Source: a virus (taxonomy: Duplodnaviria > Heunggongvirae > Uroviricota > Caudoviricetes). Taken from it: DNA of 64,000 nucleotides. The notes beneath the pieces are model-generated. The model worked only from the letters and a program-made list of their open reading frames with translations, was not told where the DNA came from and did no database searches. The stretch is from positions 323,655 to 387,654 of the IMG/VR virus record IMGVR_UViG_3300031998_000001. One strand, given 5' to 3'. A program made the position numbers and the translations under genes. Of this stretch, positions 4,239 to 62,681 are shown in pieces. How positions within the stretch are numbered: position 1 is the stretch's first letter; the number at the start of each line of letters is the position of its first letter.

Positions 4239-4622
4239 GTGGTACATATTAAAAGGATAAATGAAATGAACGGAATTGCAAACTTAACGGAAAGGCACAA
4301 GGAAATATATTGCATATTGTCATCACTCGCGAAGCGAGTCGGGGACTGCCAGTTTTGCGTGTTTCCGATGGACGACCCCGACTTCACGGAAGTTGAAGAC
4401 GGCACGCTTTTCATAAGCGTTGGCGGCGGTCATAACGGCGGAAGCGCGGTCGGAGGTTTCAAGGAAAACTGGGAGGAGTATTTCGATACGCTTTCAAAGT
4501 TTGTCCGTATGGCGAGCGATAGCGGATTGCGGCTATGGATGGTCGATGCAAGCAATGACTGCCTTGACGATATGTTTACCGTTCGGTTCGGTGTTGGTGA
4601 TAAAAATAGAAAGGAGCGATAA
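4239..4622 (+). CDS. putative head-internal protein (leader MVHIKRINEM)
   Basis: Shared N-terminal leader motif; GTG start after AGGA. Confidence 0.65.
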   Translation: MVHIKRINEMNGIANLTERHKEIYCILSSLAKRVGDCQFCVFPMDDPDFTEVEDGTLFISVGGGHNGGSAVGGFKENWEEYFDTLSKFVRMASDSGLRLWMVDASNDCLDDMFTVRFGVGDKNRKER

Positions 4623-4623
4623 A

Positions 4624-5217
4624 ATGCACGAATGGGGCGACCAGTGGTTCAAGGAGCACGGAGACCACCTTTACAGCGCGATTGACGCTTTGGAAAAACG
4701 CATACGCAAGTGGGCGTTGATGCCAGTATGCGGGAAGGAGAAATACGGAACCTACAGGGACGAATTTCTTTCGTTCTGGGACGGAAGCATCGGTTCGCTT
4801 TTCTGCGGTTACAGGATATGGTGGGGTGCTAACTGGTGGACGAAACTGTGGTTCAAGTTAGACCACTATCTCATCCCGTACAGGAAGTCGCAGTTCGGCT
4901 GGCTTCGCGGAGGCATTGCCGACTTCAACAGGCTCATAGGGCTTGTTCGCCTTGTCAACTGGTGGCAGGCTCGAAGGCTCAACAAGGCGTTCCAAGTGAC
5001 CTGCAAGGAGTACCCCGATGTGATTGACGAACTCGTAATGGACACGGACTGCTACAGGTGCATAAAGCCGTGCCGTTGGGGTGATGTTGACGGGGAGGCG
5101 ATACACCGCAAGTATTGGATACCCCTGAAGCCGAAGACCGAAACGGTAACTTTCGAGTGCAGTGGCGTTACTTGCACTGCGCAGGTCGAAGTTGAACAAG
5201 ATGATGAAACTAACTAA
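4624..5217 (+). CDS. hypothetical protein (Trp-rich)
   Basis: Start re-called at MHEWGDQ, immediately after the previous stop. Confidence 0.65.
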   Translation: MHEWGDQWFKEHGDHLYSAIDALEKRIRKWALMPVCGKEKYGTYRDEFLSFWDGSIGSLFCGYRIWWGANWWTKLWFKLDHYLIPYRKSQFGWLRGGIADFNRLIGLVRLVNWWQARRLNKAFQVTCKEYPDVIDELVMDTDCYRCIKPCRWGDVDGEAIHRKYWIPLKPKTETVTFECSGVTCTAQVEVEQDDETN

Positions 5218-5229
5218 CCAAATAGTTAA

Positions 5230-5841
5230 ATGAGCGAAAAGAAATTTTATGCAGGGGTTGTCGATATATTCGACAAGGACATCAACGGCAACCCAGAGAA
5301 AAGTTGCGAAATGGTTATCAGCGATACTGTTCCTGAAATAACGCACGATTCGTGGTTCTTCCGCTATTATGCGAATTTTCATAAGTACGAAACACTCGAT
5401 GTGTCGTCACAGAATGAACTTATGAACGAAAGAAGAATAGATTGTTTCTGGAATATGCTCCTCAAACGGCTCGAAAAGGAAAGCACCAATGAGATTGTCG
5501 GCGATGTATATGAACTGGGTGAGGAGACCTTGGAAAAAATGAAAGCGATACGCGACGATGCGGAACGCGAAATGACAGCCATCAGGAATGAAATTGTGGC
5601 GTTGTCCAGAAAGCACCTTGAAATTGCGTGCAACGCCAACGGTCGGATGCGCGAACTTCTCGAAAAGGACGGTAGGGTTGTAGATGGCAGAGAACTCGTC
5701 GAAATGACGGGCGAGGTCGCGCTATTGGAGCATAGCGCAGTGGCTAATCCGAAAGTCCGTGACCTTTTTGGTCTCAAGGAACTTTGGTGGGGCAAACCGC
5801 AAAACGGCAATTCCGATGAAAAGCAGGACAAAAACGAGTAG
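5230..5841 (+). CDS. hypothetical protein
   Basis: Operon ORF with a coiled-coil-like middle. Confidence 0.65.
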   Translation: MSEKKFYAGVVDIFDKDINGNPEKSCEMVISDTVPEITHDSWFFRYYANFHKYETLDVSSQNELMNERRIDCFWNMLLKRLEKESTNEIVGDVYELGEETLEKMKAIRDDAEREMTAIRNEIVALSRKHLEIACNANGRMRELLEKDGRVVDGRELVEMTGEVALLEHSAVANPKVRDLFGLKELWWGKPQNGNSDEKQDKNE

Positions 5842-5843
5842 TT

Positions 5844-6792: not shown

Positions 6793-6803
6793 GGCGCAAT
6801 GAT

Positions 6804-7091: not shown

Positions 7092-7093
7092 AT

Positions 7094-7255: not shown

Positions 7256-7256
7256 T

Positions 7257-7287: not shown

Positions 7288-7308
7288 ATTATTCTTATGG
7301 ATGCTCCG

Positions 7309-8019
7309 TTATTCTACCTCATAACAAGAATCATTATAGAAATCATTCAATTCGTCTCCTTTTTCTCTTACCATATCAGAAATTTCATTAAAATCATTTT
7401 TGAAATCACCAATCATCTTATTTTTGTCCGAAGGATTTAGCAAATCGCACCCATTCACCAATTTGGTATAAGTTTCTATTGCTTTTGCCACTTCATCTTT
7501 ATCTAATTCAAAATCTATGATATTCCCATCTTTGTCAATAGTTGACCAACCAGTAATACGAAAATTACATCTTACCTCTCTAACCTTGATGATGTTTTCG
7601 TCATTATATTCTGGATTATGACGAGTAATCTTATTATATGAAAAATATCCATTGTATTTTTTATGACTCTGCAAATCAAACTTATAATAATCAGGAAACG
7701 AATATGCGTTTGGTTTGGTATGACTCCATCCAGTTATACGATTTTCTTGAACAAATTTGTCAAGATAGTTGTTAAAATCAATTATTAGATTCTCATTTTT
7801 CGCTATCTTGTTTGATACGGTCGGTCTTGACATAAACCACCACCACAAGTCCATTTCATATTCAAAGGCGTGGTCGCCCGACGACCATTTATCTAATTCT
7901 TCGTGTTCAGCGGGTTCATAATAGTCATCTTTCCAATCATTATAATGGTCACCATCAAATTCATATCCGTGTGATTCTACGATATGTAAATATTCATCAA
8001 ATTTCATTATATGTGACAT
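7309..8019 (-). CDS. putative head-internal protein (leader MSHIMKFDEY), AT-rich
   Basis: Leader motif; TATAAATA at 8048-8055 (-); visibly lower GC than its neighbours. Confidence 0.75.
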   Translation of the reverse strand: MSHIMKFDEYLHIVESHGYEFDGDHYNDWKDDYYEPAEHEELDKWSSGDHAFEYEMDLWWWFMSRPTVSNKIAKNENLIIDFNNYLDKFVQENRITGWSHTKPNAYSFPDYYKFDLQSHKKYNGYFSYNKITRHNPEYNDENIIKVREVRCNFRITGWSTIDKDGNIIDFELDKDEVAKAIETYTKLVNGCDLLNPSDKNKMIGDFKNDFNEISDMVREKGDELNDFYNDSCYEVE

Positions 8020-8030: not shown

Positions 8031-8099
8031 TTATATTATTCTACTATTATTTATATTTTGTGCTTCCGCTGGGATTTGCTACCTTTGCCGATGAAAAGA
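8031..8099. repeat. 69-bp dual promoter box, copy 1 (late TATAAATA on -, Bacteroidota-type TTTG-N19-TACCTTTG on +)
   Basis: 67/69 identical to 14798-14866. Confidence 0.85.
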
Positions 8100-8174
8100 C
8101 GGAAGCCGATACTGCGGACGCACCGAAAGGCAGTTCGGTGGAAATATAAATAAGTTAGTATATAACTTATCGAA

Positions 8175-8528
8175 ATGGTACACATTAGAAGAATTGATGA
8201 AATGGCTTCCCAGACACCAAAGGCAAGCGAAGTATATGATAAGGTCGTAAAAGGATGTAGTCCCTTTGAACTTTATGCAGAAAAAAATACCGATAAAAAA
8301 CGAGGAAAGATAATATTCAGACATAAATTTAGTAACGGTCACGAAACCGTTGAACTGTATTTTAGTAAAGAAACGGACGACATATATAGTTGTGTAATGT
8401 ATAAGGATATTAAAGGTCTTATGATACAACATTTTAGTAATGCAAAAACAATAAAGGACATAGATACCAAAACTTCTGATGAAGTTGCAACCGAAATAAT
8501 CTACTACATTAAAAGAGGATACTGCTAA
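8175..8528 (+). CDS. putative head-internal protein (leader MVHIRRIDEM), AT-rich
   Basis: Leader motif; TATAAATA ~8145. Confidence 0.75.
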   Translation: MVHIRRIDEMASQTPKASEVYDKVVKGCSPFELYAEKNTDKKRGKIIFRHKFSNGHETVELYFSKETDDIYSCVMYKDIKGLMIQHFSNAKTIKDIDTKTSDEVATEIIYYIKRGYC

Positions 8529-14315: not shown

Positions 14316-14786
14316 TTATATATTAGTTCCTATTCCGAGTCGCTTGGCTTCTTTGGTAATATCATTACGGATTTCGTGTTTTTCAATATAAAGGTCGAAC
14401 ATAAACGATGTGAGATTACATTTACCCTGTTCAAAATCATCCAAATCTTTTGCGGACGGTTCAACAAAGTCAACATATTTGTTAGCAGTAGTAAATTTTC
14501 CAGTAACAGCCAATACTAATCTATTTTCTTGGTATGGGTCATAATACCAATCATTCATATTAAATTCGTGTCCGTGACATTGTTCATCGTTGAATTTTCT
14601 CATCAACCCCTCTAATGTGTCTGATTTTATATGCCCCATATCGAGTTCTATCGTATGCGGATTATACTCCTCTCCTCTGGTATAACTATCTTCGGCGATG
14701 ATACAATCGCAACTTCTAATGATATATTCTGTTTTATCGTCAAGTGTCTGACTATTCATCTCGTTCAATTTCTTAATATGTACCAT
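14316..14786 (-). CDS. putative head-internal protein (leader MVHIKKLNEM), AT-rich
   Basis: Leader motif; lies behind promoter box copy 2. Confidence 0.75.
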   Translation of the reverse strand: MVHIKKLNEMNSQTLDDKTEYIIRSCDCIIAEDSYTRGEEYNPHTIELDMGHIKSDTLEGLMRKFNDEQCHGHEFNMNDWYYDPYQENRLVLAVTGKFTTANKYVDFVEPSAKDLDDFEQGKCNLTSFMFDLYIEKHEIRNDITKEAKRLGIGTNI

Positions 14787-14797: not shown

Positions 14798-14866
14798 TTA
14801 TATTATTCTACTATTATTTATATTTTGCGTTTCCGCTGGGATTTGCTACCTTTGCCGATGAAAAGA
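14798..14866. repeat. 69-bp dual promoter box, copy 2
   Basis: Near-identical to 8031-8099. Confidence 0.85.
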
Positions 14867-15206: not shown

Positions 15207-16997
15207 TTAGATGATGTCAACGCCTTCGAGTTTGATACCCAAAGTTACATACTGCAACTGTGGATTGTGACCAACCTCAACGATTGAGTAACGAGAACTC
15301 ATTACCATAACGGGACCGAATGTGAACTCCGAAGTGGTTTCCACTTTTTCTGCAAGCAGATATGGAGCAAACATCAAGCCGGGTTCGCCTTCCTTGCCCT
15401 TGCGACCAACGAGGATACGCATATCGTCAAGTTTCATATTCGGGTCAACATAGATTGAAATTCCCGAAAGGCTACCGATTGGGTAGAGGCTCTTGTTAAC
15501 ACCGAGAGTGTTGCTCATCGGGTAAGGCATAAATCCTGCGCAGTCCTGCAAAACCGCACCGATTGTTCCAGATACAACTGCGAAGTTGCCCTGTCCCAAA
15601 CGACCGCGAACGTGGATTACCTGCGAAGCATAGAGTATCTTCGACATAATGCGCCTCTGGATAGTACCCATTACTTCACCGCCAGCAGTAATGTTGACTG
15701 CCTTTGCACCTACTGTGATAGGTTCGCCGTCACGGTCGAAGCCCAACCAAATCTGTGCGGTGTCGCTTGAAGGAGTACCGTTTGTGAAGTAAGCGGAAAG
15801 TTTGCTAACACCAGCAACAGGAGATTCTACTTCCTCTACCTGCTTTGCGTTGATAGCACCGAGAGTAAACATCTTCTGGAGGATTTGCTTGTTGATGGTC
15901 TGTGTCAACTCGTCAGCCAACTTCGCCTCAACCTGTGCTACTGCGTCGATACCGTAAACCTTCAAGTCCTGTACCTGTTCGCGGGTGATTGCTGCGCTTA
16001 CCTTGATGGTGTCAGCCTTGTAGTCGATGTCGAACGACTTCAAACCAAGTTGTCTTGCTGGGGTTTCCTCACCGAGACCACGGCTGTATGCACGATAGTC
16101 GGTAGCAGGATTTTCGCCCAAGAAACCGCGACCGCTGTAAGAAGCGATATGGTTCTGGAGAGCCTTTACATTTTCAACTGGTTCAAGACCGTTTGCGAAA
16201 CCGATGCACTCGAAAAGAACTGGGCTTGACTGTCCAACTTCTTCAAGTGTGTAGTCAGGAGTTTCACCTCCCTTGTAAAGTCCGTTTACAAGTTCGTAGA
16301 TAGACTTTTCTGCACCTTCTCCACCGAGAACTGGGTTTTCTGAATGGTAAGCCTTTTCCATTACCCTGAATAATGGATAACCGTCAACCCTGTCAGGATA
16401 CAAGAATGTCAATTCGTAATCCGTAATCTGCTCGTTGTTTTTGTCAAAGAAAGCGTACTTGCGGTTAGGGGTGAAGCGATACTTCATTTCGCCTTCGCCT
16501 TCGATAGCGAACTTCGCGTTAACCTTAATCATATAAGGAGCAGCGGTGTTCTTGCCAGTGTAGTTTGAAGTTGCAAACGGGTCACTTGGGTGGATGCGTC
16601 CGCCTTCATATACATAGTCAAGATACTGCTGTGTTCCGTGAGGTGTGCTCATTGGAACAACATACAAAAGGTCGAGTGCGATAGTCTGTGCGGCAATCTG
16701 CAAGCCCAATGGAAGGGTTGAGAAAGTCTTGTCACCGCTACCTGCCAAGCCCGGTTCGTATGCTGCGCGTGTCTGTGCGCTTGGGAAAGCGATGTTACCC
16801 ATACCGCCGATGGTCATATTAGGATTAAGATGTGCGTGACCGTCAACGCTTTCGTTTAACATCTTTTCGTTCATTGAATGGAAGTAAGCGTACTTGCTCA
16901 TCCAGTTCAACTTGGTATTGTCGGTTACACCAAGAGATTCCTTGATGTGGTTAGCCCAACTCTGCTGAATCTGATTTTCGTTTAAGTTCAAATACAT
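15207..16997 (-). CDS. major capsid protein, T4 gp23-like
   Basis: IALDLLYVVPMSTPHG, TREQVQDLK..GIDA, ELTQTINKQIL, GNFAVVS, VYVDP-like, APY, SRY motifs of the gp23/gp24 family; N-terminal LNE/IKE/LNE cleavage-like sites; start re-called at MYLNLNE. Confidence 0.85.
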   Translation of the reverse strand: MYLNLNENQIQQSWANHIKESLGVTDNTKLNWMSKYAYFHSMNEKMLNESVDGHAHLNPNMTIGGMGNIAFPSAQTRAAYEPGLAGSGDKTFSTLPLGLQIAAQTIALDLLYVVPMSTPHGTQQYLDYVYEGGRIHPSDPFATSNYTGKNTAAPYMIKVNAKFAIEGEGEMKYRFTPNRKYAFFDKNNEQITDYELTFLYPDRVDGYPLFRVMEKAYHSENPVLGGEGAEKSIYELVNGLYKGGETPDYTLEEVGQSSPVLFECIGFANGLEPVENVKALQNHIASYSGRGFLGENPATDYRAYSRGLGEETPARQLGLKSFDIDYKADTIKVSAAITREQVQDLKVYGIDAVAQVEAKLADELTQTINKQILQKMFTLGAINAKQVEEVESPVAGVSKLSAYFTNGTPSSDTAQIWLGFDRDGEPITVGAKAVNITAGGEVMGTIQRRIMSKILYASQVIHVRGRLGQGNFAVVSGTIGAVLQDCAGFMPYPMSNTLGVNKSLYPIGSLSGISIYVDPNMKLDDMRILVGRKGKEGEPGLMFAPYLLAEKVETTSEFTFGPVMVMSSRYSIVEVGHNPQLQYVTLGIKLEGVDII

Positions 16998-18805: not shown

Positions 18806-19234
18806 TTACATCCTCACGGCTCGGTCGTACAAGTCATTATAGTCGCTTCGGGAAACACCGATTGTCGTACAGCGCATACCCTTCTTCGATATGTGCGATT
18901 CGAGTTTCTCCACGAACAGCACCTCGTCGTCCTCCGTGCTGTCAACAAGTATGCAGACCGTATTGAAGTCGTCTGGACTGCGCTGAATGTCATCGATAAG
19001 CCCCATAATCTCGCTGTACCTGTCGATTATGCTGTACAGCCTGAATACCACAACGCCCGTGCTGGCGGCATACTCGGAAAGCCTGCCAGTGCATCTTATG
19101 CCGTTCCCGCCGACGACCTTCGCGATAACCTCGTCGTTGCCGTATTCCTCGCCCTCGCTGGTAACGAACACGAACTTCACGGAACTGCTCCCCGTATCCG
19201 ACAGCCTTTCGTTTATCTTCCTGATGTGTATCAT
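18806..19234 (-). CDS. putative head-internal protein (leader MIHIRKINE)
   Basis: Leader motif. Confidence 0.7.
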   Translation of the reverse strand: MIHIRKINERLSDTGSSSVKFVFVTSEGEEYGNDEVIAKVVGGNGIRCTGRLSEYAASTGVVVFRLYSIIDRYSEIMGLIDDIQRSPDDFNTVCILVDSTEDDEVLFVEKLESHISKKGMRCTTIGVSRSDYNDLYDRAVRM

Positions 19235-27232: not shown

Positions 27233-27274
27233 TTGCGGGTTTATAAATAATGATAGAATATATTTGAATTTGAT

Positions 27275-27730
27275 ATGATACACATCAGGAGATTGAACGA
27301 GATGGCTGAAGCCGACCAGACGCTCACCCCGATACAGCGGGAGGTGATGGCTGAACTCAAGGAGAGGTACGGCATAGATACGGGCAATATCACTTGGGGG
27401 AGCGACAACTACTTCTGCAACGATGCCGACGGTTGCAACGGGAGCGTATATAAAAGTGAAGAGGAGGCGCGGAGGTCGATATTAAGCCCGACTGGTGACA
27501 ACCACCAGAACGCCCTTGATTTTGTTGAGGACGCAATGGGGGATGAAGAATGGATTGGCTTTCTGGAGAATTGCGGTATCAACCGCAGGACTGCGGAGAA
27601 AATCATATCGGGGGGCAACTGGAAGAAGGTCGTTGAGATTGTGGTGAAGAACGAAGGCGCAAAGTTCTTTTTGAGCACATATTCGGGCGGTACATTTGAA
27701 CTCGGCAACGGCTATATTGTTTATTTCTAA
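27275..27730 (+). CDS. putative head-internal protein (leader MIHIRRLNEM)
   Basis: Leader motif; TATAAATA 27242-27249. Confidence 0.75.
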   Translation: MIHIRRLNEMAEADQTLTPIQREVMAELKERYGIDTGNITWGSDNYFCNDADGCNGSVYKSEEEARRSILSPTGDNHQNALDFVEDAMGDEEWIGFLENCGINRRTAEKIISGGNWKKVVEIVVKNEGAKFFLSTYSGGTFELGNGYIVYF

Positions 27731-29107: not shown

Positions 29108-29210
29108 ATCCAATTCAAAAATATATTCTTACTTATTTATATTTTTTCTGAAATTCCTATTTATTAACTATATATTAGTGTTGGAAAGAAAACAACAAAA
29201 GCGTAAGGAA

Positions 29211-39056: not shown

Positions 39057-39167
39057 TGTAATTGACACAATTTGAGATTTTTCATATTACAATCGTTATT
39101 ATCGGTGCGACCTTCTCGGTCGCACTTTTTTCATTTTATAAATAATGTATATATAACATTTTTGAAT

Positions 39168-40115
39168 ATGATACACATTTACAAAACGGACGAGTTCGTG
39201 GCGTTGCTTGAAAAGGCGAACAGCAAGGGTGCTGTCTATAAGAGTTCATCTGTTGACGACATCATAAGGAAGTACACCGAGAAGGGCAGGATTAACGAGG
39301 AAACCATAACCAAACTCATCGACATATTGAGGGATGTCCCGTATTCGCAGGACTACATTGAACTTGTGAATGGACTGCTCGAAGACAAGAGGGTGAGAAA
39401 GTTGTTCCAGCACAAACTTGAAAACGGAAAGTCAATAATCGACGCAATAGAGAATGTTGACATCGTTACCGACAAGGTGATACCCACCCAGAACGAAATC
39501 GACATATCGAAGAGCCTTGACTTCGGACTTACCAACAAGTTCGACACAATCAACAATGTGTGCAGGCGGGGGATATTGAAGGACACCCCGATAGTCGTGT
39601 TCAACGGCAAGTACATAATTGACGGACACCACAGGTGGTCGCAGATGTACTGCTTCAACCGCAAGCAGGACGAGCACGAGACGACATTCAAGGCTATAAA
39701 CCTCGTGAGCAAGGCGGTCACCAACCCGATGGACATCCTCAAGATGGTTCAGACCACGATAGGCATCGACCTTGCGCCAGACAAGGAGATACCAGTGGAA
39801 ACCACCGACAAGAACGCAATGAACATTTTGAGCAACCGCTGTACGAGGGAGTTTATGGAGAAGTATTGCGACAAGAAGATAACCGACGGCTGTGTCAACG
39901 GAATGAAGAAGTACCACGAGGCTGACGGCGTGGTTGACAGGGAAAGCACAATCGACTACATTGTGCGCAACTGCGAGAGGATGAAGCAGGAGTGCAAGCC
40001 GATAAAGGGTGCGCCCTCGCGCGACATTATGCCGCAGACCGACCAAGACGACAAGATACTGCCGAGCCGTAAGAACGACGAGCCTACAATCGAGACGGCA
40101 ATAGACCTTTCGTAG
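39168..40115 (+). CDS. ParB/Srx-like N-terminal domain protein with leader MIHIYKTDEF
   Basis: IPTQNEID...PIVV...YIIDGHHRW; TATAAATA 39137-39144. Confidence 0.75.
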   Translation: MIHIYKTDEFVALLEKANSKGAVYKSSSVDDIIRKYTEKGRINEETITKLIDILRDVPYSQDYIELVNGLLEDKRVRKLFQHKLENGKSIIDAIENVDIVTDKVIPTQNEIDISKSLDFGLTNKFDTINNVCRRGILKDTPIVVFNGKYIIDGHHRWSQMYCFNRKQDEHETTFKAINLVSKAVTNPMDILKMVQTTIGIDLAPDKEIPVETTDKNAMNILSNRCTREFMEKYCDKKITDGCVNGMKKYHEADGVVDRESTIDYIVRNCERMKQECKPIKGAPSRDIMPQTDQDDKILPSRKNDEPTIETAIDLS

Positions 40116-42673: not shown

Positions 42674-44401
42674 ATGGCAAGCATAATGAACGAGGGGCTT
42701 CGCAAGACAATTCGCGTGCTCCTGTTTACCAAGTATATCGAAAAACTCGGACTCAAAGAGCCGAAGATACCAGACTTGAAGTTCTGGCAGAATTTCCAGT
42801 TGCCTCCTATGCCAGATGTGTCCGCCCTCATCGCGGAAGCCAACAGGCAGTTGACGAACTCCGACCCGAATGACATATACACGAGGGAGTATCTTGACGC
42901 GGTGGACGGCTACAACAGCCTCGTGTCGAAGGAGAAGGAGAAACTTGATGCGATAGTCAAGGAGCAGGAGGAGATAAAGAAACGCTCGAAGAACAAGGTT
43001 GCCGAGCAGAAGGACGGCATAGCCCTCGACCTGTTTGCCGAAGTCGAGGTTATGAACAATGCTGACGAGGCGATAGCGACGGCGAGGGAGGCGTACAACG
43101 ACGCGAAGAAGGAGGCTTGGCAGAACTTTGAACTCGATACGATACAGAAGTACAAGAGAGTGCCGAAGGAAAAGAAGAAGGGTGCGAAGAAGTCGGCTGA
43201 CGGGGAGACGAACTCAAAGAAGCAGAAGTCGAAGTCGGTTATGGCTGCGGCTATGCAGACGGCTATCGCAAAGCAGTACGAGAGGTATGTGAAGAAGCAA
43301 CTTATGGTGGTCAAGCGCAAGGTTCGGGAACTTGAGAAGTTCTACGAGGACTGCAACACCATATTCGTTGAAACCCCGAAGAACATCAAGAGGTATTTCA
43401 CCGACAAGGACGGTATGGGGAAGAAGATGGTCGATGAGGAGTGCGACAAGATAGACCGTTGCTGGGACAACCTGCTCGAATCAATAAAGGAACTCACAAC
43501 CGACATCGCCACTATGACAGCCAAGATACCGAACCCCGATGTGATAGTCGTGGGTACGGCTGCGGGTATGCCAAACCCGTTCCAGAAGATTATGATATTT
43601 ATGGAGAATGTCAAGAAGGTGGCAACCGACATAAAGAAAATCATAAACTATGTGAACGAGATGCTTTCCATCGCGAAGGCTCTCGGCTTCAACCTGAAGA
43701 ATTTGGAGACATTCATCGGCATAATGAAAGTGATAGAGGCGTTGAAGGGCGACTATGACAAGCAGTTCAGGAATGCCGTGAAGCAGTTGCAGAAGAAGTC
43801 GAAGTGGGTTGCGGAGATAAAGGATGTCGTCGAAGAGCCAGACAAAGACGATGACGGCAAGGAAATAGCGAGCGATGACGACGACCCCGAACACAAGACG
43901 CGCAAGGCTGGTTACAAGTATGCCGACCTTGACATCGACTGGGAGAACCATACGGTGGACATACTCGGCTACAGGTGCTACTGCACGAGAAAGGAAGGAA
44001 GGAAGAAGAAGGCTTGGCACGGCAAAAGTTACAAGAAGAAAGGCGGGGAGCGTATCGACAACAAGGGAAAGAGATACTACTACATATCTGCGGACGAGAT
44101 GAAGAAATTTTTTGTTTCGGCAGCGGAGGGGAACTCCACTTGGAGCGAGAACACTATGGACAGCGAGGATATGTATATGTATGATAAGGATGGCAACACG
44201 CTTCTTAACAAGGAGGGTTTTCCTGTCAAGAACGAGAACTACGGCAAGCAGGACAGTATGTATGCTGGGGCTACATACGACTATGACAGCAACACGACCA
44301 GACTTGTCCTTGCGGACGGTCGTATCGTCACGATAGACTATCTTGCGGAGGTCGGGGACAGGATAAAACTCAACGACGGCACATTCATAGAGGTCGTATA
44401 G
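42674..44401 (+). CDS. hypothetical Lys-rich coiled-coil protein
   Basis: 575-aa ORF co-transcribed with 41297. Confidence 0.7.
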   Translation: MASIMNEGLRKTIRVLLFTKYIEKLGLKEPKIPDLKFWQNFQLPPMPDVSALIAEANRQLTNSDPNDIYTREYLDAVDGYNSLVSKEKEKLDAIVKEQEEIKKRSKNKVAEQKDGIALDLFAEVEVMNNADEAIATAREAYNDAKKEAWQNFELDTIQKYKRVPKEKKKGAKKSADGETNSKKQKSKSVMAAAMQTAIAKQYERYVKKQLMVVKRKVRELEKFYEDCNTIFVETPKNIKRYFTDKDGMGKKMVDEECDKIDRCWDNLLESIKELTTDIATMTAKIPNPDVIVVGTAAGMPNPFQKIMIFMENVKKVATDIKKIINYVNEMLSIAKALGFNLKNLETFIGIMKVIEALKGDYDKQFRNAVKQLQKKSKWVAEIKDVVEEPDKDDDGKEIASDDDDPEHKTRKAGYKYADLDIDWENHTVDILGYRCYCTRKEGRKKKAWHGKSYKKKGGERIDNKGKRYYYISADEMKKFFVSAAEGNSTWSENTMDSEDMYMYDKDGNTLLNKEGFPVKNENYGKQDSMYAGATYDYDSNTTRLVLADGRIVTIDYLAEVGDRIKLNDGTFIEVV

Positions 44402-46215: not shown

Positions 46216-46383
46216 TTTGGGACATATTTTTGTTATTTGTATTTTGTATTGTAAGACCGCCGTGGAGTTTCCCAGACACACGGCGGATTTTTTTATCGTG
46301 CCACAAATCGTGCCACTTGGCACGATACCGCCTGTGTGTTGTTGCATTTATAAATAAGTTATATATAATATATTTGTTTTGTT

Positions 46384-47235
46384 ATGGTACATATTAAGAG
46401 AATTGACGAGATGGCTGGGAACAATGTCGGTGCAATTAGGGGGGAATACCGTGTGTATGCCCTTGATGAAAGAACAGCGGACGCGGTTATGAGAAAACTC
46501 AACTGCAAGAATGTCGAAGGCATATCGGACGATATGTTCATCGACACTGCCGAAACCGAAGGTACTGTATGGTCGTTGGCTGGCTTTGTGGATAACTGGA
46601 ACAACAACGACCAGATGATGCCAAGTCCCGACTTTTCGTACATAAGGATATTCGACCGCAACGGAAGTCAGGTCGCCGTCAAGGACGATACATACCGCAT
46701 CTATGTGATAAGCAACGACAGCGCGTTTGTCGATGAATATGAATATTGCGATGAGATACCGAACGACAAGTTCATCGACACTGCCGAAACCGAAGGTACT
46801 GTATGGTCTCTGGCTGGCTTCCAAGACAAGTGGAATAACGACAACCAGATGTGCCCAGACCCAGAGTATTCTTGGATTAGGATTATCAGGAAAGATGCCA
46901 AGATATTGACAACCCGAAGGGGTGTTAACGAGGCGCAGGAAAATCGTTCCAATGCACGCCTCTGGAAAGTTGGCGACATACTCGTATATTCGATAACCGC
47001 GACGGCAAGGACTGTCATCTTTTACAGGGTAACAAGAACAACTGGTTCGACCATATGCGCTGAAAAGTTGCAAAGCACGTGGGCGAACAGCGTGGACGGG
47101 AAGATTATTCCCGATTTGAGAGCCAAGAGCACTGGAACGGAATCTTGGAGGATAAAACAGGACGGGACTTGTGGAAGCAGGTATGAATACATAGAAAAAT
47201 GGGACGGCAAACCCGAAGTGGAATGGGGTGACTAA
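46384..47235 (+). CDS. putative head-internal protein (leader MVHIKRIDEM) with internal tandem domain duplication
   Basis: Leader; FIDTAETEGTVWSLAGF..WNN x2; TATAAATA ~46348. Confidence 0.8.
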   Translation: MVHIKRIDEMAGNNVGAIRGEYRVYALDERTADAVMRKLNCKNVEGISDDMFIDTAETEGTVWSLAGFVDNWNNNDQMMPSPDFSYIRIFDRNGSQVAVKDDTYRIYVISNDSAFVDEYEYCDEIPNDKFIDTAETEGTVWSLAGFQDKWNNDNQMCPDPEYSWIRIIRKDAKILTTRRGVNEAQENRSNARLWKVGDILVYSITATARTVIFYRVTRTTGSTICAEKLQSTWANSVDGKIIPDLRAKSTGTESWRIKQDGTCGSRYEYIEKWDGKPEVEWGD

Positions 47236-49494: not shown

Positions 49495-52002
49495 ATGGCT
49501 ATTGATAGTAACATTGCAAAGATGAACATTCGTTCAGCGGGAACGAAGCGTATGGAGATAGACCAGACCATACAGAATTCTCCATCTACCGTCCCGACGA
49601 ATGTCCGTATGCTTGTGGGCTTCTCGAAGCAGGGTCCAGTCAACCGCCCGATATACATAAGGAACTCAAAGGAGTTCGTCGAGACATTCGGGAACATTGA
49701 CCGCACATTGGAGAACCGTGGGTGCTACTTCCACCGTTCCGCGCTTGCTATGCTTGAGGTTTCGCCTATATACTGCCTTAACCTTTTCAAGCCGCTTGAG
49801 GGGGACAGCGTTGATGTGCTTGACTTCTCGTTAAGCCCGACCAACAGGATGAACAACACCGACCAGAGCAGTGCGCAGACTATTCTTGGATACTCCTACA
49901 AGGGGATGTATAACATCGATACCGTCTGGACACCAGACGAGGAATGTATGCTCTTCACCGTAGGACGCGGGATAGAATGGAATGATGGCACGAGCGAGGC
50001 TGGAATGGGTAAACTCACCAACAACCTCCTTACCTTCACCAATATCGGCAAGAAGCCTATCTCCGTTCTCGTAACGAAGGCAGCGAAGGAAAATGTGAAG
50101 AACTGCGACATCACCGCAGTCGAATGGTTCGGCAAGGGTAATGTTCCAGACTATATCCGCGAGGAAAGTTACATAAGTGACTTCTATGTCGATGTCTATG
50201 TATTCGACGGAAAGTGGGGCGGAGAGGCTAACGAGGACGGTATGCCTTACAAACGCTTCGCAAGCGACATCAAGTTCTCGAAGTATTTTGACCCAGTGAA
50301 GGGCTTGAAGCGCAAGGCTAACGCAAAGGACAACACCGATACGATGCTCTACTCGTTCCTTAACGAAAGCGATGTAACATTGCTCGGCAAGTACACTGGC
50401 TGCCTCATACCGGGCTTTGTTGACAAGCGCGGAAGGGATGTCTATATCGAGCGTATGATTAACAACGACACCGACAAGAACGGTCTTATGTGTGCGGTAA
50501 ACGAAGCCGTGTTCGGAAATATTCCTTTCGGGACTTATGCAGACGGCTCGCAGACTGGCTACGATATGGTCGGACACACAATCAACTACGGAGATGACGC
50601 TGAAAGCATCGACATCGAGTTCCTTGCATACAAGATGAACAAGGAGGACTATGACATCAACAACTACCGCGAGGTTATACCTACCGTAAGCGGTGAAGAA
50701 CTCGGCATTGAAGTCAAGGACAACGAGTTCCTCATCACAAAGGAAACGGAAGGCGTTAGTGTCGGCGACTATGTTGTAAGCAACACGGAGGAGGGCAATC
50801 GCCGTCTCGCCCGCGTGGTTACAATTCAGGGAAGGTCGGCAGAGGGAAGCGATGAGGTCGAGTACAAACTCGTAACCTGCTCGTCAACCGTTTACAGGAC
50901 ACCCGACAGCGATATGGCTGTAATCAAGGTGAAGGCTCTCACCGACTGGTTCACACACTACCAGATTTTCAACCTCAACGGATTTACCCTTACGGCTTCA
51001 CACCAGCCGAACGGAACTAACACACGCCAGCACGAAATATTGGGCGTGCTTGAGGAAGGCAGCAAGGACAGCAACTTGTTCAAGGCTCTTACCGACCGCA
51101 CATTCATCCGTTTCAGGTACTTGGTTGACAGTTTCGGCTTCGGTATCGAGGAGTCCTGCAAGGACACATATACCAAACTCTGCAACAAGCGCAAGTCGGC
51201 ACTCGCGATAATCAATGTTCCTTCGTGCGCTGACTTCAAGAACAGCCCAGACCCAGTGTTCACGGACGAAAGCGGAAGCGTAAGCGCGGAACTCATCGCG
51301 CAGGGAGGCGATATGACGAAGAACCCGTCATTCCTTTTCAGCCTGCCGAGCGAACTTGACGGGGCGACCTACGGTGCTTACTACTATCCGTACCTGAAGA
51401 TTTACACGAACTACTCGGTAATCAATGTTCCGCCTGCGGCTTATGTTTCCAACAACTACATCACGAAGTACGGCAAAGGTCGTGCTTGGGAAAGCGTTGC
51501 TGGTGAAAAGCGCGGTGTATTGCGCGGAAACGGCATAATCGGAACGGAGGCGAGCCTCATCGAAGACCACCGCAACTACCTCGAACCGATTGGCATCAAC
51601 TCGATTATCTACCGCGACGGTATCGGCTGTGAAATCTATGCTAACCGCACGGCAAAGCAGAAACCCGAAAGCGCACTTTCGAGCATCAGCGTCCGCGAGG
51701 TCTGCATCTACATCGAGGACGAAATCGAGAACATACTTGAAAGTTACCTGTTCGACAACAACACCGCGCAGACACGCCTTGAAATCAAGACGCTCGTTGA
51801 CAACTTCCTGCAAGGTGTTGCCGACTGCGGTGGTATCATCGCGTTCAAGACTGTAATGGACACCTCGAACAACACTCCTGAAATCATTGCGAAGAAGATG
51901 GGTGTTATTGATGTGTTTATCGAGGCAGCAGAGCCGATGGACATTTTGATTCAGCGCGTAACTATCGTTAAATCAGGACAGATAGAGAGCAGTGGCTTCT
52001 AA
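49495..52002 (+). CDS. contractile tail sheath protein (gp18-like)
   Basis: VGFSKQGPVNRP..I....F...FG; VPPAAYV, W..VAG..RG, INSI, LS.I.VRE, FD.N...TR, MD..NNT. Confidence 0.92.
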   Translation: MAIDSNIAKMNIRSAGTKRMEIDQTIQNSPSTVPTNVRMLVGFSKQGPVNRPIYIRNSKEFVETFGNIDRTLENRGCYFHRSALAMLEVSPIYCLNLFKPLEGDSVDVLDFSLSPTNRMNNTDQSSAQTILGYSYKGMYNIDTVWTPDEECMLFTVGRGIEWNDGTSEAGMGKLTNNLLTFTNIGKKPISVLVTKAAKENVKNCDITAVEWFGKGNVPDYIREESYISDFYVDVYVFDGKWGGEANEDGMPYKRFASDIKFSKYFDPVKGLKRKANAKDNTDTMLYSFLNESDVTLLGKYTGCLIPGFVDKRGRDVYIERMINNDTDKNGLMCAVNEAVFGNIPFGTYADGSQTGYDMVGHTINYGDDAESIDIEFLAYKMNKEDYDINNYREVIPTVSGEELGIEVKDNEFLITKETEGVSVGDYVVSNTEEGNRRLARVVTIQGRSAEGSDEVEYKLVTCSSTVYRTPDSDMAVIKVKALTDWFTHYQIFNLNGFTLTASHQPNGTNTRQHEILGVLEEGSKDSNLFKALTDRTFIRFRYLVDSFGFGIEESCKDTYTKLCNKRKSALAIINVPSCADFKNSPDPVFTDESGSVSAELIAQGGDMTKNPSFLFSLPSELDGATYGAYYYPYLKIYTNYSVINVPPAAYVSNNYITKYGKGRAWESVAGEKRGVLRGNGIIGTEASLIEDHRNYLEPIGINSIIYRDGIGCEIYANRTAKQKPESALSSISVREVCIYIEDEIENILESYLFDNNTAQTRLEIKTLVDNFLQGVADCGGIIAFKTVMDTSNNTPEIIAKKMGVIDVFIEAAEPMDILIQRVTIVKSGQIESSGF

Positions 52003-57130: not shown

Positions 57131-57163
57131 AATATAAATATTATATAATACATATATTTCACA

Positions 57164-59224
57164 ATGAAGAAGAACAAACAGTTGATGATACTTGAGCGCA
57201 CCGAGTCCCTGCTTACCGAATGCGCGGGAAGCGGACAGGATGGCGTTATTCGTCTTTCTGGTGTGTTTACGAAGTTCAATGTGCTTAACGGCAACAACCG
57301 CATATATACCCCCGAAGGCTTCCTACCGAAGTTGCAGGAACTTATGCCCGCAATCGCTTCGGGTGCATTGCTTGGCGAACTCGACCACCCGAAGACCTTT
57401 GATGTAAGTTTGCAGAACGCAAGCCACGTCATAGAGAAGGTCGAGTATGACGAGGCTAACCAGCAGGTCATCGGAACGATAAGGCTGCTCAATACCGACG
57501 CTGGTCGTCAGGCGCAGGCACTTGTCCGCGACGGTATTCCGTTGCACATATCTTCCCGTGCGGCTGGAAATGTTGACCCCGCCACCAACAAGGTTACGCT
57601 CGACAAGTTGTTTACATACGACTTGGTGGCGACCCCGGGCTTCTCCGAAGCGGTACTCCACCGTGTAAACGAGTCATACGGGTTCTCGAACTCTGGGAAC
57701 ATTGCCATCTATGAGATGGACGAAATTAACGAAGCAGGAAATAACAAAGAATATAATAATACCATTATGAGTAATAGCACGGATAATCACGTCACGACAA
57801 AGGATTTCCAGAAGTACACCGAATATATCGGCGGAGTTGTCGGTCAGTTGAGGGAATCCCTTGAGAATGTAAAGGCTGAATTGAAGAGAGGTTCGAGCGC
57901 ACTTCCAGAAAGTCTCGAAGGCTATCTCGACCACCTCGCAGAAGGCATCAACAAGACACAGGAGCACAGCGACTACCTCGCGGAGCAGTTGGAAAAGACC
58001 ATCAACAGGGGTGGCAGTTCAAGTGCGCTCGAAGAGAAGGTCAACGCCCTCATCAAGCACAACAACTACCTCGCGGAACAGTTGGAAAAGACCATCAGGT
58101 ACAGCGAGTATGTGGCGGAAAACCTCAACAACACGCAGAAGCACAGCGACTACCTCGCGGAGCAGTTGGAAAAGACCGCCAACCACAGCGACTACCTCGC
58201 GGAGCAACTTGAAAAGACCGCCAACCACAGCGACTATCTCGCGGAGCAGTTGGAAAAGGGCATAGGCTATACCGAATATGTTGCCGAGAGTCTTGACAAC
58301 TCGGTTAAGCACAACGATTATCTCGTTGACAACCTCAACGCGATGTGCAAGCACAGCGACTATGTTGTGGAAAATATGAACAAGATGTGCGAGCATCAGG
58401 ACTACCTCGCGGAGAAGTTGGAGCAGAACTTCGCACACAACGACTACCTCGCGGAGAAACTCGGACAGAACTTCGCACACAACGACTATCTTGCGGAGGA
58501 ACTCAACAAGTCCAACGCATACAGCGCATATATCGCTGAAAGCCTTGACAAGACCTGCCAGCACAACGACTACCTCGCAGAGCAGTTGGAGGCAACGGCA
58601 AACCACGGTGACTACCTCGCGGAGCAGTTGGAGAACGGCATCAACGGCAAGGCAATCAACGAAGGCTGGTCGGAACGCCGTCCTTCTATGATAATCGAGG
58701 GCAAGACCAACGAGTCGTACAAGGCTAACCTTGACGCTAAACTCGATGCCCTTATCTCGAAGGTCAACACCACCGTAAAGGAAACCAACTTTATGGACTT
58801 CCTTTCGGAGAACAGGCAGAAGGAGTTCTACTCGCTTGACGATGAAACAAGGGGTATGATTACCGAAGCGATGAAGGGTGTAAAGAACGCTGAACAGGCT
58901 GCTACCGTATGGCGCAGGGTATATGAAAGCAAGAAGGGGCTTGACATCGTTGAGAATATGCCTGAACAGTTCAGGGCTAAATGGGAAGCATTGAGCGACC
59001 AGCGCAAGGGCGAATTGCTCGAAGAGGCGAAGTTCTACAAACTCAACAGTGCGAACGAAATCGCTTATTTCTGGCAGACACGCGATATGCGTGAGACCAA
59101 GCAGATTGTTGAACGCCTTGACACCGACAGTGCGCGTATGTGGAACACCGAAGCCAATATGAAGGAGCAGAACGACTACATCGGCAGCATTATGGGTCAG
59201 GTAAAACGCAGAATGGGGTGCTAA
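57164..59224 (+). CDS. prohead protease (T4 gp21-like) fused to a repetitive scaffold domain
   Basis: NGNNRIY, GELDHP, SHVI, ISSRAAG, YDLVATPGF; then 14-aa H(S/N)DYLAEQLEKT repeats. Confidence 0.9.
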   Translation: MKKNKQLMILERTESLLTECAGSGQDGVIRLSGVFTKFNVLNGNNRIYTPEGFLPKLQELMPAIASGALLGELDHPKTFDVSLQNASHVIEKVEYDEANQQVIGTIRLLNTDAGRQAQALVRDGIPLHISSRAAGNVDPATNKVTLDKLFTYDLVATPGFSEAVLHRVNESYGFSNSGNIAIYEMDEINEAGNNKEYNNTIMSNSTDNHVTTKDFQKYTEYIGGVVGQLRESLENVKAELKRGSSALPESLEGYLDHLAEGINKTQEHSDYLAEQLEKTINRGGSSSALEEKVNALIKHNNYLAEQLEKTIRYSEYVAENLNNTQKHSDYLAEQLEKTANHSDYLAEQLEKTANHSDYLAEQLEKGIGYTEYVAESLDNSVKHNDYLVDNLNAMCKHSDYVVENMNKMCEHQDYLAEKLEQNFAHNDYLAEKLGQNFAHNDYLAEELNKSNAYSAYIAESLDKTCQHNDYLAEQLEATANHGDYLAEQLENGINGKAINEGWSERRPSMIIEGKTNESYKANLDAKLDALISKVNTTVKETNFMDFLSENRQKEFYSLDDETRGMITEAMKGVKNAEQAATVWRRVYESKKGLDIVENMPEQFRAKWEALSDQRKGELLEEAKFYKLNSANEIAYFWQTRDMRETKQIVERLDTDSARMWNTEANMKEQNDYIGSIMGQVKRRMGC
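57920..58640 (+). repeat. coding tandem repeat, 42-bp period
   Basis: CACAGCGACTACCTCGCGGAGCAGTTGGAAAAGACC variants, roughly 15 units. Confidence 0.85.
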
Positions 59225-59262: not shown

Positions 59263-60018
59263 ATGACTACTATGTATTACAGGACTGTAAACGAGGGGCT
59301 TGACTGGAAAGTTGAGGATTGCGAGGAACTTCTGGCGAATGTTGACGACAACTATGCGAAGGAGGTCGAGCGTTTTATGAACAGGGAAGGCGTAACAAGC
59401 ATCCGCTGGATAAAGCCAGAGGGCGTGGGTGCGCTTACCGATGAAATCCGCGACCACAGGCTTGACTGCGCTTCCGTTCTCTGTGATATTCTCAACTGCA
59501 CGGAGAGGGGCGTATATTACAGGAGGCTTCTCGGAGAGCAGATAAAGGACAGCAGGGGCTATGTGACAAGGGGGCTTGCCACGGAACTGTATGCTGCGAT
59601 ACTCGACTACATCAAGTGGAACAACTTTATGGGCGAGGCGCAGGGCGTTGTTCTGACCACACCGTTGTCGGAGGCGTTAGACCCAGACCGTTACTATGAG
59701 TTCAAGGACAACGACAAGTTGGGCTTCAGGGGTAAGGTATATGTTCCTGAAACATTCAGCGATGCGTTTACAATGCAGTTTGAGAAGATAACGGACAAGC
59801 AACTTTACTACTCTATGCTGGCGATGGGCTATCCTAAATGGACGATACCGTACAACGGCAAAGGGGAGGCTACGAAGGAGCAGAGAGAAGTGATGCTTAT
59901 GGTCATCTACAACTATCTTTCCACGCTTATCGCTTCAAGGGGCAAAACCAAGAACGAAATGCCAGAACCTGAACAGCAGGTAAGGTTTCGGAATCCAAAC
60001 TTCAAGGTTTATAACTAA
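59263..60018 (+). CDS. hypothetical protein
   Basis: Start re-called; N-terminal ..RTVNEG. Confidence 0.65.
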   Translation: MTTMYYRTVNEGLDWKVEDCEELLANVDDNYAKEVERFMNREGVTSIRWIKPEGVGALTDEIRDHRLDCASVLCDILNCTERGVYYRRLLGEQIKDSRGYVTRGLATELYAAILDYIKWNNFMGEAQGVVLTTPLSEALDPDRYYEFKDNDKLGFRGKVYVPETFSDAFTMQFEKITDKQLYYSMLAMGYPKWTIPYNGKGEATKEQREVMLMVIYNYLSTLIASRGKTKNEMPEPEQQVRFRNPNFKVYN

Positions 60019-60036
60019 TAATAAAAGGACAGGACT

Positions 60037-61449
60037 ATGCGGTCATTCAGCATAAACAGGAATTTTGCACGGAGCATAAACGAGAGCAAGAAGGTTGAGA
60101 AACTCACCCTTGTCCTCTTATCTACCAACGAGAACAGCACATTCAGCAAGATGCTTCAGGACAAGTGCGCAGGCAACGGGTTCGACTTCATATTCGCAGA
60201 CCCGACCAACTGCACGCTTCGCCGTGCCGATGACGACAGGTTCGAGTTGAGCACCAACGGGAGCATCTATACGCTCGTGCGCAACAACACGGTTGTAATG
60301 CCCCGTCTGACCGTCCTGAAGAACAGCCAGACGAAGAACGCATTGCGCGAGTTCGAGTATTATGACTTCTTCGTGGTGAACAACCTCGAAAGTTTCGAGA
60401 ACTGCGAGGACAAGTACACGACATACAAGGTGCTGTGTGCCGAGAGCCTTGCCACTCCGAGAACTACGGTCGTCAATGCCGACAATATGGACAGGCTTCA
60501 GAAGAAGGTTGACTTCATCGGAGGTCAGTTCCCGATAGTCTGCAAGTTGCTCAACGGGAAGAAAGGCGTGGGAGTGTTTATCATTGACAGTTTTATGTCT
60601 TTGAAAAGCACCCTTGAAGCCATATTCAAACTTTCGCCAGAGAGCGAGATACTTATGCAGAACAAGATTGACAGCGACTACGATTTGCGTATCCACGTCT
60701 TCAACAAGTCGTACAACCGCATTTCGAGAAACCTTGATGACTATGAAGTCATAGGCGTAATGAGGAGAAACAAGGTTACGGGAGACTTCCGTACCAATTT
60801 CTCGCTCGGCGGGACGATAGAGAAGTTCACCCTTGCACCAGAGCAGGAGGAACTCGCGAAGAAGACCGCTATGGCTGTCAAGTGCCGTTGGTGCGGTGTC
60901 GATATGATTGAGGACAGGGCGACTGGCGAGAACTATATCATAGAAGTAAACGCATCTCCGGGCGTGAAGGGAATATCGAGCGTGAGCGAACACTTGCCTC
61001 TCGACTATATCTTCAACTACTTCAAGCAGTTCAGGGCGGTCAACAACAACACCACCGTAATCGGCAAGGTTGAGACAGCCAAGTTGACATTTGAAAACGG
61101 GGAATACGAGGGTGATGTCTGCTTCGACATCCAGTCCGATGTGAACTCAATCTATGCTTCCGATGTAAGTTACTCGGAACGCGAGAACACGATAACATTC
61201 AACTTCGGCGGAGGTATGTGCGTGGCGAAGGTAATCGCCTCTATGGTTGACAGGGACAAGCGCAAGTGCTATCTCGTCAATGCCGATGTCGAGTTCAACG
61301 ACAGGCGTTACCGCAACAGCCTTTTCAATGTGTACGAGAACGATGAGGAGAAGGTGTGTATGTCGTCCCAGTTCATATCGTTGCTGGGCAACTGCGTGAG
61401 CATAGACCCGCAGAACGACTATCTTGTTACCGACAAGGTGATATTGTAG
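60037..61449 (+). CDS. rimK: RimK-family ATP-grasp ligase fused to a degenerate RimB-like protease domain
   Basis: DKY.T, TPRT, FPIVCK, G.KG.GV, DLRI, DFRTNFSLGG, GVD, IEVNASPG. Confidence 0.85.
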   Translation: MRSFSINRNFARSINESKKVEKLTLVLLSTNENSTFSKMLQDKCAGNGFDFIFADPTNCTLRRADDDRFELSTNGSIYTLVRNNTVVMPRLTVLKNSQTKNALREFEYYDFFVVNNLESFENCEDKYTTYKVLCAESLATPRTTVVNADNMDRLQKKVDFIGGQFPIVCKLLNGKKGVGVFIIDSFMSLKSTLEAIFKLSPESEILMQNKIDSDYDLRIHVFNKSYNRISRNLDDYEVIGVMRRNKVTGDFRTNFSLGGTIEKFTLAPEQEELAKKTAMAVKCRWCGVDMIEDRATGENYIIEVNASPGVKGISSVSEHLPLDYIFNYFKQFRAVNNNTTVIGKVETAKLTFENGEYEGDVCFDIQSDVNSIYASDVSYSERENTITFNFGGGMCVAKVIASMVDRDKRKCYLVNADVEFNDRRYRNSLFNVYENDEEKVCMSSQFISLLGNCVSIDPQNDYLVTDKVIL

Positions 61450-61480
61450 AATAAATGATAATATAATAAATCGAATAATT

Positions 61481-62206
61481 ATGCAGTACATTAAAACTTT
61501 TGAAGAGTTCCTCAACGAAAAGATGAACATCACAAACGGTGTTACCGTATTCGAGAAGGACTTTGGTGTTGACCCGAAGACCATCTTGGCTGAAATAAAG
61601 AACGGTGGTCGCGGTCGTGGTACTTCGGCTTGTTATTTGAGTGCAGTAAAGGTCAACAAGACCTATGTTGACGCTTCAGGCAACAAACTCCCGAACCCGA
61701 TGGCTGAACCAGTTGCAATCGGTGGCACAGTTGCACCGAGATTGTACAAGATAACCTATTATCTTTTCAAGGCTGGTATCGACTATGCAAAGAACCGCGA
61801 AAAAGAGGCAGCGGCTCACGGAGATGTATATGTTGCAGGCGCAGACAAGGGCAAGACGAATGTTCCCGGACTTGAAGGCTTCCTCAAGTACAAGGACATC
61901 GACCCAAGCGTGCTTTATCTTGTAATCAACTACGGACAGGCAAGACCAGAAAGCGAATATTTCGTATATGATGACAGTCTGGGTGACTATCGTCCTTGCG
62001 ACAAGTCTGAAATCGCTATGTATCTTCCGCCAAAGAAATCCTACACTTGGGCTGACGGCGCACAGAAGGACGGCTATGTAACGGCAGGTCTTGAAAAGAT
62101 ATTGTATATCAAGTCGAATAAGACTTATTACTACAACAAGCCATTGCTCAACAATGTTCCTCCTACGATAGCACAACTCGTAAAGAACAGCACGAACGCA
62201 TACTAA
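61481..62206 (+). CDS. putative head-internal protein (leader MQYIKTFEEFLNE)
   Basis: Leader closely resembles the T4 internal-protein MKTYQEFIAE; terminator at 62227-62256. Confidence 0.75.
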   Translation: MQYIKTFEEFLNEKMNITNGVTVFEKDFGVDPKTILAEIKNGGRGRGTSACYLSAVKVNKTYVDASGNKLPNPMAEPVAIGGTVAPRLYKITYYLFKAGIDYAKNREKEAAAHGDVYVAGADKGKTNVPGLEGFLKYKDIDPSVLYLVINYGQARPESEYFVYDDSLGDYRPCDKSEIAMYLPPKKSYTWADGAQKDGYVTAGLEKILYIKSNKTYYYNKPLLNNVPPTIAQLVKNSTNAY

Positions 62207-62291
62207 CATTTGTTTGATTTATGTGGAAAAGCGGGGCAAGCACCCCGCTTTTCCTTTATATATAAATAATCTATATATAGCATAATCCGAT

Positions 62292-62681
62292 ATGGTACGC
62301 GGCGGACATATTGCGCTTTCATTCTCGGAGTTTGTGTCCGAGATGAAGTCGGGCACGAAAGTCCCTCGTTGCATCTATGAGGGAAGGTCGTCAGACCTTA
62401 TGCAACATCATTACCCAGACGATGAGGTGAAGTCCGCAGTGTGGGACTATGTTCTCGGCTACACCACGAGCGTCAACAATGAACTCCGAAAGGGGAGGAA
62501 AGGCGTGGCGAAGCAGGTGTCCGACCTGCTCGACAGGGCGTTCACGAAGAAGATGAAACTCGATGTCTATCGGACGGTGGACTGGGCTTTTATGGAAAAC
62601 ATATTCGGGATAACGAAGGACAACATAGGCGATATGGCAGGACGGGTTATCACGGACAAGGGGTTGGCAACAGTTCAATGA
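62292..62681 (+). pseudogene. VIP2/Alt-like ADP-ribosyltransferase, N-half, interrupted by a tnpB element at 62664
   Basis: Y...Y..VN.ELR..., LD.AF, VYR, G..ITDKG| ; the STS and ExE motifs are missing, presumably beyond the element. Confidence 0.7.

Follow-up and report, generated by a model that had tools for sequence, protein, structure and literature searches.

Phage T4 carries a short N-terminal capsid-targeting sequence (CTS) on three internal proteins, namely IPI, IPII and IPIII, and on the Alt propeptide, and the prohead protease gp21 removes it (PMC9026906, PMC3012670, PMC5694885). The leader of IPII and IPIII reads M-K-T-Y-Q-E-F-I-A-E in the sequence record, with residues 4 and 7 serving targeting and residues 8 and 10 processing (PMC9026906). 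T-even phages have diverse internal proteins with only the CTS in common (PMC3012670), and the T-even literature has already proposed the CTS as a route for adding varied cargo. The ejection proteins of phiKZ and SPN3US, the latter with ∼50 head proteins, have propeptides with A/S/G-x-E sites, mostly >100 amino acids (aa) long (PMC5694885). In phage P1, the N-terminal capsid-targeting signal of DarB suffices for packaging a reporter, and the Dar N-termini have no consensus (PMC9024508). Here we describe a short N-terminal leader shared by 67 genes of an uncultured phage (IMG/VR record IMGVR_UViG_3300031998_000001), which with a probability of roughly 0.7 acts as a T4-type capsid-targeting and cleavage tag. 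The stretch analysed, hereafter the window, comprises the final 64 kb of the 387,654-bp record, with a GC content of 49%; window genes are named by the position of their start.

The initial annotation had listed 11 open reading frames (ORFs) in the window with such a leader, and all of them start as quoted, 4239 through a GTG in frame with an ATG at 4266; the related contig L059 has an ATG at the GTG position. Minus their first 15 aa, these proteins gave no mutual BLASTP match at E ≤ 1e-3, in agreement with their description as otherwise unrelated. The whole-genome motif scan that the annotation recommended yielded a set about six times larger: the leader was present on 67 of 532 called genes (∼1 gene in 8), which form 60 unrelated body families and are dispersed in 44 separate runs (33 single genes, largest run 11). 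Genes were called with an in-house hexamer caller (529, and 532 after merging). The census used two patterns, giving 68 rows, of which six were dropped (no nearby gene call and upstream A+T <0.8), while five leaders were added by eye.

The seven-residue core can be written as I-[KR]-x-[FYIL]-[DNE]-E-[MFY], often with [ILV]-x-E downstream, and its aligned columns (n = 66) held I58/V7, K44/R8/L8, R33/K18/T8, I18/F18/L13/Y9, D25/N23, E57/D8 and M29/F25/Y8. There were two interchangeable versions, class A (H-I-K-R-I-N-E-M, 40 genes) and class B (I-K-x-F-x-E-F, 22 genes), besides five loose cases. Aromatic residues occupied positions 4 and 7 in class B and in nine genes of exact T4 geometry, and class A had mostly I/L and M. 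Class B reproduced the arrangement of the T4 IPII/IPIII leader. Recurrence by chance is excluded, because a position weight matrix matched 34 of 529 gene starts where internal windows predict 0.22 (partly circular, the matrix having been trained on these starts), the T4-geometry pattern matched nine gene starts against 0.34 expected, and out of sample the latter matched 13 of 609 ORFs of the huge phage LR756500 against 1.2 expected. An [ILVFM]-x-E site, a broad pattern chosen after inspection of the data, followed the core in 29 of 66 tagged and 54 of 446 untagged genes (p = 6e-9), 12 times in T4's exact register. The narrower xNE[SAG] followed it in 12/66 and 6/446, respectively, and [ILV]-[ND]-E is part of the core in class A.

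The gp21 homologue that had been claimed for the window was confirmed at 57164–59224 (PF03420, 32.6 bits with a cut-off of 27; phrog_207, E = 5e-38). A scaffold-like region built of 14-residue D-Y-L-A-E-Q repeats is joined to it; many huge-phage homologues have kept this fusion, whose C-terminal domain is also conserved (P600, F636, W637). The alignment comprised 79 sequences, drawn from 150 listed among 3240 homologues found; H75, S130 and R132 were invariant in it, and H75 and S130 are presumably the catalytic pair, by analogy with gp21. A V/I-N-E/S motif at the protease boundary was nearly invariant among the aligned homologues, with E170 of the junction VNE170/S171 in 78/79, N169 in 66/79 and S171 in 64/79. 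The scaffold region (C-terminal 486 aa) contained 18 candidate sites, 11 of them L-A-E, compared to 3.3 in shuffles, and an excess over the protein's own shuffles was found in 78 of 78 aligned homologues. The capsid protein had three candidate sites in residues 1–50, the last being LNE49/S50, and none in its last 316 residues (281–596). The same [ILV]-x-E site marks the boundary between protease and scaffold, the repeats of the scaffold and the N-terminus of the capsid protein.

The motif TATAAATA, read here as a late promoter, was located 30–36 nt upstream of exactly eight of the 11 window leaders, as previously noted, and not upstream of 4239, 19234 and 61481 (Table 1); its position peaks at -40 to -26. 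The leader was not equally frequent in early or non-virion genes: TATAAATA preceded 34/67 tagged and 58/465 other genes (p = 8e-12), late units drawn by a permissive operon rule took in 57/67 and 170/465, respectively, and the tag was missing from all 13 replication or housekeeping genes. It was likewise missing from 14 virion, packaging and lysis genes, 12 of which were in late units. A signal addressed to a non-head partner, for instance the Lon-type protease of the phage itself, a chaperone or some compartment of the cell, would have to accommodate this strong enrichment, the exact T4 geometry in nine genes here and 13 in LR756500, and a leader that ends in or precedes the xNE site conserved at the head protease's own junction. 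We regard it as improbable, even though the genome encodes an ATP-dependent protease (phrog_4871), class A deviates from the T4 aromatics and some tagged genes lie in non-late clusters.

The 32 strict class A cores had 32 different DNA sequences and 19 peptides; each of the seven degenerate columns varied synonymously, and 1221 synonymous pairwise codon differences were counted. The exact pattern was also found in 28 metagenome and three metagenome-assembled genome (MAG) stretches with a GC content of 31–51%, two of the 31 being contigs already known from an earlier search for relatives. It began at the first ATG of the frame in 27/31, had TATAAATA upstream in 17/31, and was attached to bodies of 24 families. 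Since 32 DNA sequences encode 19 peptides and the peptide persists over this range of GC, the codons indicate that the peptide, not the DNA, is what is kept. They make it highly improbable that a DNA cassette (a late promoter with an A/T-rich enhancer of translation and maybe another start at NE-ATG) was copied around with an incidental peptide, although this would accommodate the 30–58 identical upstream bases of some tagged genes, the preference for AGA at one Arg column, the Met in the eighth column of class A, after the Glu, in 28/32, and a 94%-identical homologue of the WDGH cargo recorded without leader. Upstream sequence of at least 25 nt was shared by 8 of 561 tagged pairs and 1 of 1653 untagged late pairs, and these blocks, of up to 58 nt, suggest that promoter and leader spread as one unit through recombination. 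The spreading of cassettes is more plausibly the way in which the tag moves than the reason for its retention.

Among homologues, the leader was gained, lost or swapped. The WDGH cargo had 3381 homologues, and among the best 120 the leader was present on six, all 87–98% identical, and absent from 113 at 63–80% identity as well as from the 94%-identical one. Two tagged LRR-repeat proteins had two untagged paralogues (50–65% identity) outside late units. Orthologues in the relatives G001, G002 and L045 exchanged leader versions, with similarity restarting right after xNE or xxE. Internal leaders occurred at fusion junctions in the G001 homologue of 27275 and in genome gene 87188, and genome gene 90713 had an internal xNE where its free-standing tagged G002 homologue starts. 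The leader was limited to a lineage, being found in G001, G002 and LR756500. Leader-like motifs were also observed inside proteins or near the C-terminus (genome 238850 and 316707; window 23546–25534).

The T4 geometry in nine genes, the xNE/xAE site shared by protease, scaffold and capsid, the conservation of the peptide, the late enrichment, the absence from tail and replication genes and the portability together argue for a head tag. The leader would dock ∼67 unrelated, mostly late-expressed proteins onto the prohead core by binding the scaffold, and the gp21-like protease would then remove it after the glutamate, class A being cut either at xNE/M within the core or nowhere. The trimmed proteins would be retained in the mature head. 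As with the T4 CTS, there is a leader of about ten residues on unrelated bodies, a basic residue followed by hydrophobics three apart, an [IL]-x-E site, a gp21-family protease and variable non-core cargo including an ADP-ribosyltransferase (ART) type. In contrast to T4, where three internal proteins plus Alt are concerned, ∼67 genes are dispersed over the genome, class A has an xNE site inside the core, the protease is fused to the scaffold, and leaders occur inside fusion proteins. The cargo, as judged by its sequences, is not made up of IP homologues, being acidic and unrelated. In phiKZ and SPN3US many head proteins are likewise processed after Glu by a prohead protease, as proposed here, but with long propeptides that have no shared short tag, in another lineage and with another motif (PMC5694885). 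P1 DarB resembles the proposed system in its N-terminal packaging signal and anti-restriction cargo, and differs in being a single demonstrated cargo with no Dar consensus to set beside the shared leader (PMC9024508). The mechanism is known from T4; its scale (67 genes) is not in the literature searched, and no description of such a tag in Lak- or PAU-related or metagenomic huge phages was found in that full-text literature, which did not cover subscription papers and supplements.

The cargo was small and soluble, with a median of 179 aa and a predicted membrane helix in 1/67, and mostly had no assigned family. Matches to ART-PolyVal (genome 80958), WDGH, DUF5856, WYL_2, DUF4314 and a Zn_protease/retropepsin-like family passed the Pfam cut-off, the last also matching PDB 2pma (E = 0.003). 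Below the cut-off were the matches to SAM-lyase, PRTase and Lcl_C and that of the window's ART, and the PDB matches of the SAM-lyase-like cargo were weak ones to Cas9, taken as chance. The description of 39168 as ParB-like is a fair lead to a ParB/Srx-like protein, given its invariant IDGHHRW motif and ParB clusters in the Atlas search at 0.87–0.88; the fold was not established by these scores, which are below 0.9, nor by a PDB search, which gave no sequence match. Its predicted model had low confidence in the N-terminal ∼50 aa and a confident body. Among the best 120 of 229 homologues the leader was present on six, and [ILV]-x-E occurred in the first 35 aa of 70/119, compared to 17.9 when shuffled. 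On P0013, P0022 and about ten further homologues, the same body carried another conserved N-terminal module (∼40 aa) in place of the leader, and this module may offer a different means of head targeting. The naming of 62292 as an ADP-ribosyltransferase was borne out only weakly: this protein of 129 aa had a sub-threshold Pfam match (E = 0.006) to profile positions 18–99 of 196, no longer homologue was found, and the 234 bases at the record start contained no recognisable second half. It appears as a weak, truncated match without a complete catalytic domain. A TnpB element lies directly behind it, and another tagged gene, intact in contig L052, is split by a TnpB element.

Several results weigh against a head tag with host-acting cargo. 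In class A (40/67) the Y and F of T4 are replaced by I/L and M, and only 10/40 of its members had a further site within 14 aa; the post hoc choice of the broad cleavage pattern counts here as well. No TATAAATA of their own was found for 33/67 tagged genes, 10 were outside any late unit, the capsid gene likewise had no TATAAATA, and 4/13 replication or housekeeping genes were in late units. A T4 gp55 query gave no match in the genome, so the label 'late' rests on the motif and its place before virion genes. The cargo was acidic (median pI 5.3; pI >8 in 9/67, as in untagged genes), whereas T4 internal proteins are basic (PMC9026906). None of the 67 tagged genes scored above a cut-off for a known anti-defence family. 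An untagged control family also exceeded shuffles modestly for the N-terminal [ILV]-x-E site (24/114 vs 12.8). The leader was taken as lacking in the cultured phage PTm1 (1 match, 0.2 expected) and was absent from Lak-A1 (0 in 370 of 542 kb examined) and from RaK2 (0/569 ORFs with T4 geometry).

Beyond retention in the head, the trimmed proteins might be ejected with the DNA and act on the host, with jobs differing by cargo (host take-over, counter-defence, core filling). We place ejection of host-acting proteins at slightly less than an even chance. The initial annotation had proposed a portable tag that loads an arsenal for injection, possibly of anti-defence factors. Head targeting and cleavage by gp21 gained independent sequence support from the present analysis, and injection for anti-defence gained little direct support, most cargo being without family, acidic and without an anti-defence match above the cut-off, and the ART truncated. 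Differing on ejection only, the packaged proteins may instead be core or filler, trimmed or degraded and never acting in the next host. Such a role would suit cargo that is acidic like scaffolds and has internal xNE sites in several members (e.g., genome genes 90713 and 15456), and T4 IPIII does affect head assembly (PMC9026906). Filler is nevertheless unlikely given the 60 unrelated bodies, among which are enzyme folds (ART-PolyVal, retropepsin-like, ParB/Srx), a tag recently grafted onto the widespread WDGH domain, and two tagged genes interrupted or directly trailed by TnpB, which implies that some are dispensable. A more far-reaching and rather tentative picture is that of a gut jumbo phage lineage in which the portable 10-residue tag is a plug-in that turns any captured gene into virion cargo. 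Its fast-turnover arsenal of 60–70 injected proteins would include an ART-PolyVal enzyme, a SAM-lyase-like candidate for anti-restriction, enzymes of the ParB/Srx type, LRR binders, and a RimK ligase together with a RimB-like protease; polyproteins punctuated by tags would be cut apart in the head.

Further genes of the window are listed in Table 1. The RimK-family ATP-grasp ligase at 60037–61449 has an N-terminal extension ending in INE/S (ITE/S in its G002 orthologue), and both it and the retropepsin-like protease (L016:16013–16543) have leader or cleavage-site starts, so that a packaged pair adding and removing glutamates is possible; PF05618 is presumably the RimB-type partner of RimK. The late-unit gene 42674, which like 59272 has a propeptide-like start, has no targeting core, and an Atlas search with 46384 gave no named match.

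Table 1. Leader genes, head genes and other features of the window, with the position of the late-promoter motif where present.
Feature	Position	Strand	Basis or context
Tagged gene, class A leader (GTG start), unnamed body, no TATAAATA	4239..4622	+	leader match
Tagged gene, class B leader, unnamed body	7309..8019	-	leader match
TATAAATA late-promoter motif of 8019	8048..8055	-	motif
TATAAATA late-promoter motif of 8175	8145..8152	+	motif
Tagged gene, class A	8175..8528	+	leader match
Tagged gene, class A; TATAAATA at 14815-14822	14316..14786	-	leader match
Major capsid protein, gp23-like	15207..16997	-	profile matches
Tagged gene, class A, no TATAAATA	18806..19234	-	leader match
Tagged gene, class A; TATAAATA at 27242-27249; G001 homologue is the second module of a fusion, leader internal	27275..27730	+	
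Tagged gene, hybrid A/B leader, LDE/G site downstream; TATAAATA at 29134-29141	28478..29107	-	
Tagged ParB/Srx-like protein (IDGHHRW), a lead; TATAAATA at 39137-39144	39168..40115	+	
Late-unit gene, short xNE/G propeptide-like start	42674..44401	+	
Class A tagged gene; genome gene 90713 shares its two internal repeats; TATAAATA at 46349-46356	46384..47235	+	
Tail sheath gene serving as negative control: late promoter, leader absent	49495..52002	+	
gp21-like prohead protease with scaffold-like repeats; TATAAATA at 57133	57164..59224	+	PF03420, phrog_207
Gene behind protease, short VNE/G propeptide-like start	59272..60018	+	
RimK-family ATP-grasp ligase, extension ending INE/S, candidate cargo	60037..61449	+	
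Class B tagged gene of exact T4 geometry, without its own TATAAATA	61481..62206	+	
Tagged gene of T4 geometry, weakly ART-like in the N-terminal half only; TATAAATA at 62261-62268	62292..62681	+	
IS200/IS605-family TnpB reading frame	62713..64000	+	directly behind ART-like gene

The uncultured phage is a T4-like jumbo phage, with a gp23-like capsid protein, a tail sheath and a gp21-like protease encoded in the window. Its major capsid protein was 40% identical to that of the uncultured huge phage LR756500, ∼30% to those of Lak and PTm1 and 27% to that of PAU. The Jug phages were ruled out as its clade, with a GC content of 27–30% against 49% here (PMC12880540). The record ends overlap within a TnpB gene, and the genome is therefore probably circular. 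We infer a host in the Bacteroidota because relatives infect this phylum, Shine-Dalgarno motifs were scarce (43/532 genes, with A dominant at -12/-13), and the leader pattern occurred in only three stretches of a 185,579-species genome collection, all of them Bacteroidales ruminant MAG contigs. Related viral contigs were collected with the leader pattern and not with the protease; a protease-based search of viral contigs gave no confirmed locus. RaK2 was discarded as a cultured test with virion mass spectrometry (MS), as it is without the leader and the mass-based mapping of its ORFs is only partly reliable; the start of genome 238850 resembles that of a RaK2 ORF tentatively mapped, through its mass, to the MS-detected virion protein gp156 (PMC3622015). 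Lak-A1 has another recurrent N-terminal start, E/S-L-F-D or S/N-L-F-D, on LRR and other proteins (L025–L027, L101–L111).

At least seven TnpB- or transposase-like genes in two groups were observed (window 62713–64000, 54606–55850 and 17308–18699; genome 85585, 194773, 239175, 206096 and 84257). Many genes at genome ∼257,000–301,000 (L015–L017) have similar N-termini and presumably resemble DNA methyltransferases. The region at genome ∼305,700–312,300 (L017–L018) is gene-poor, with repeated short ORFs of one common start sequence, and is possibly a region of repeats or non-coding RNA. One bovine RNA run gave short contigs, mostly 95–99% alike, over part of the window, from which no level, strand or start could be read and which were not used.

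Injected proteins are normally learned only from purified virions, which are out of reach for uncultured jumbo phages. With a readable tag, the packaged proteome could be predicted from sequence, and ∼60 unnamed proteins per genome could be shortlisted for counter-defence and host take-over screens. If the reading is true, the tag would be a sequence barcode with which injected counter-defence proteins could be mined from metagenomes, and it would show the T4 loading mechanism scaling from four proteins to one-eighth of a genome.

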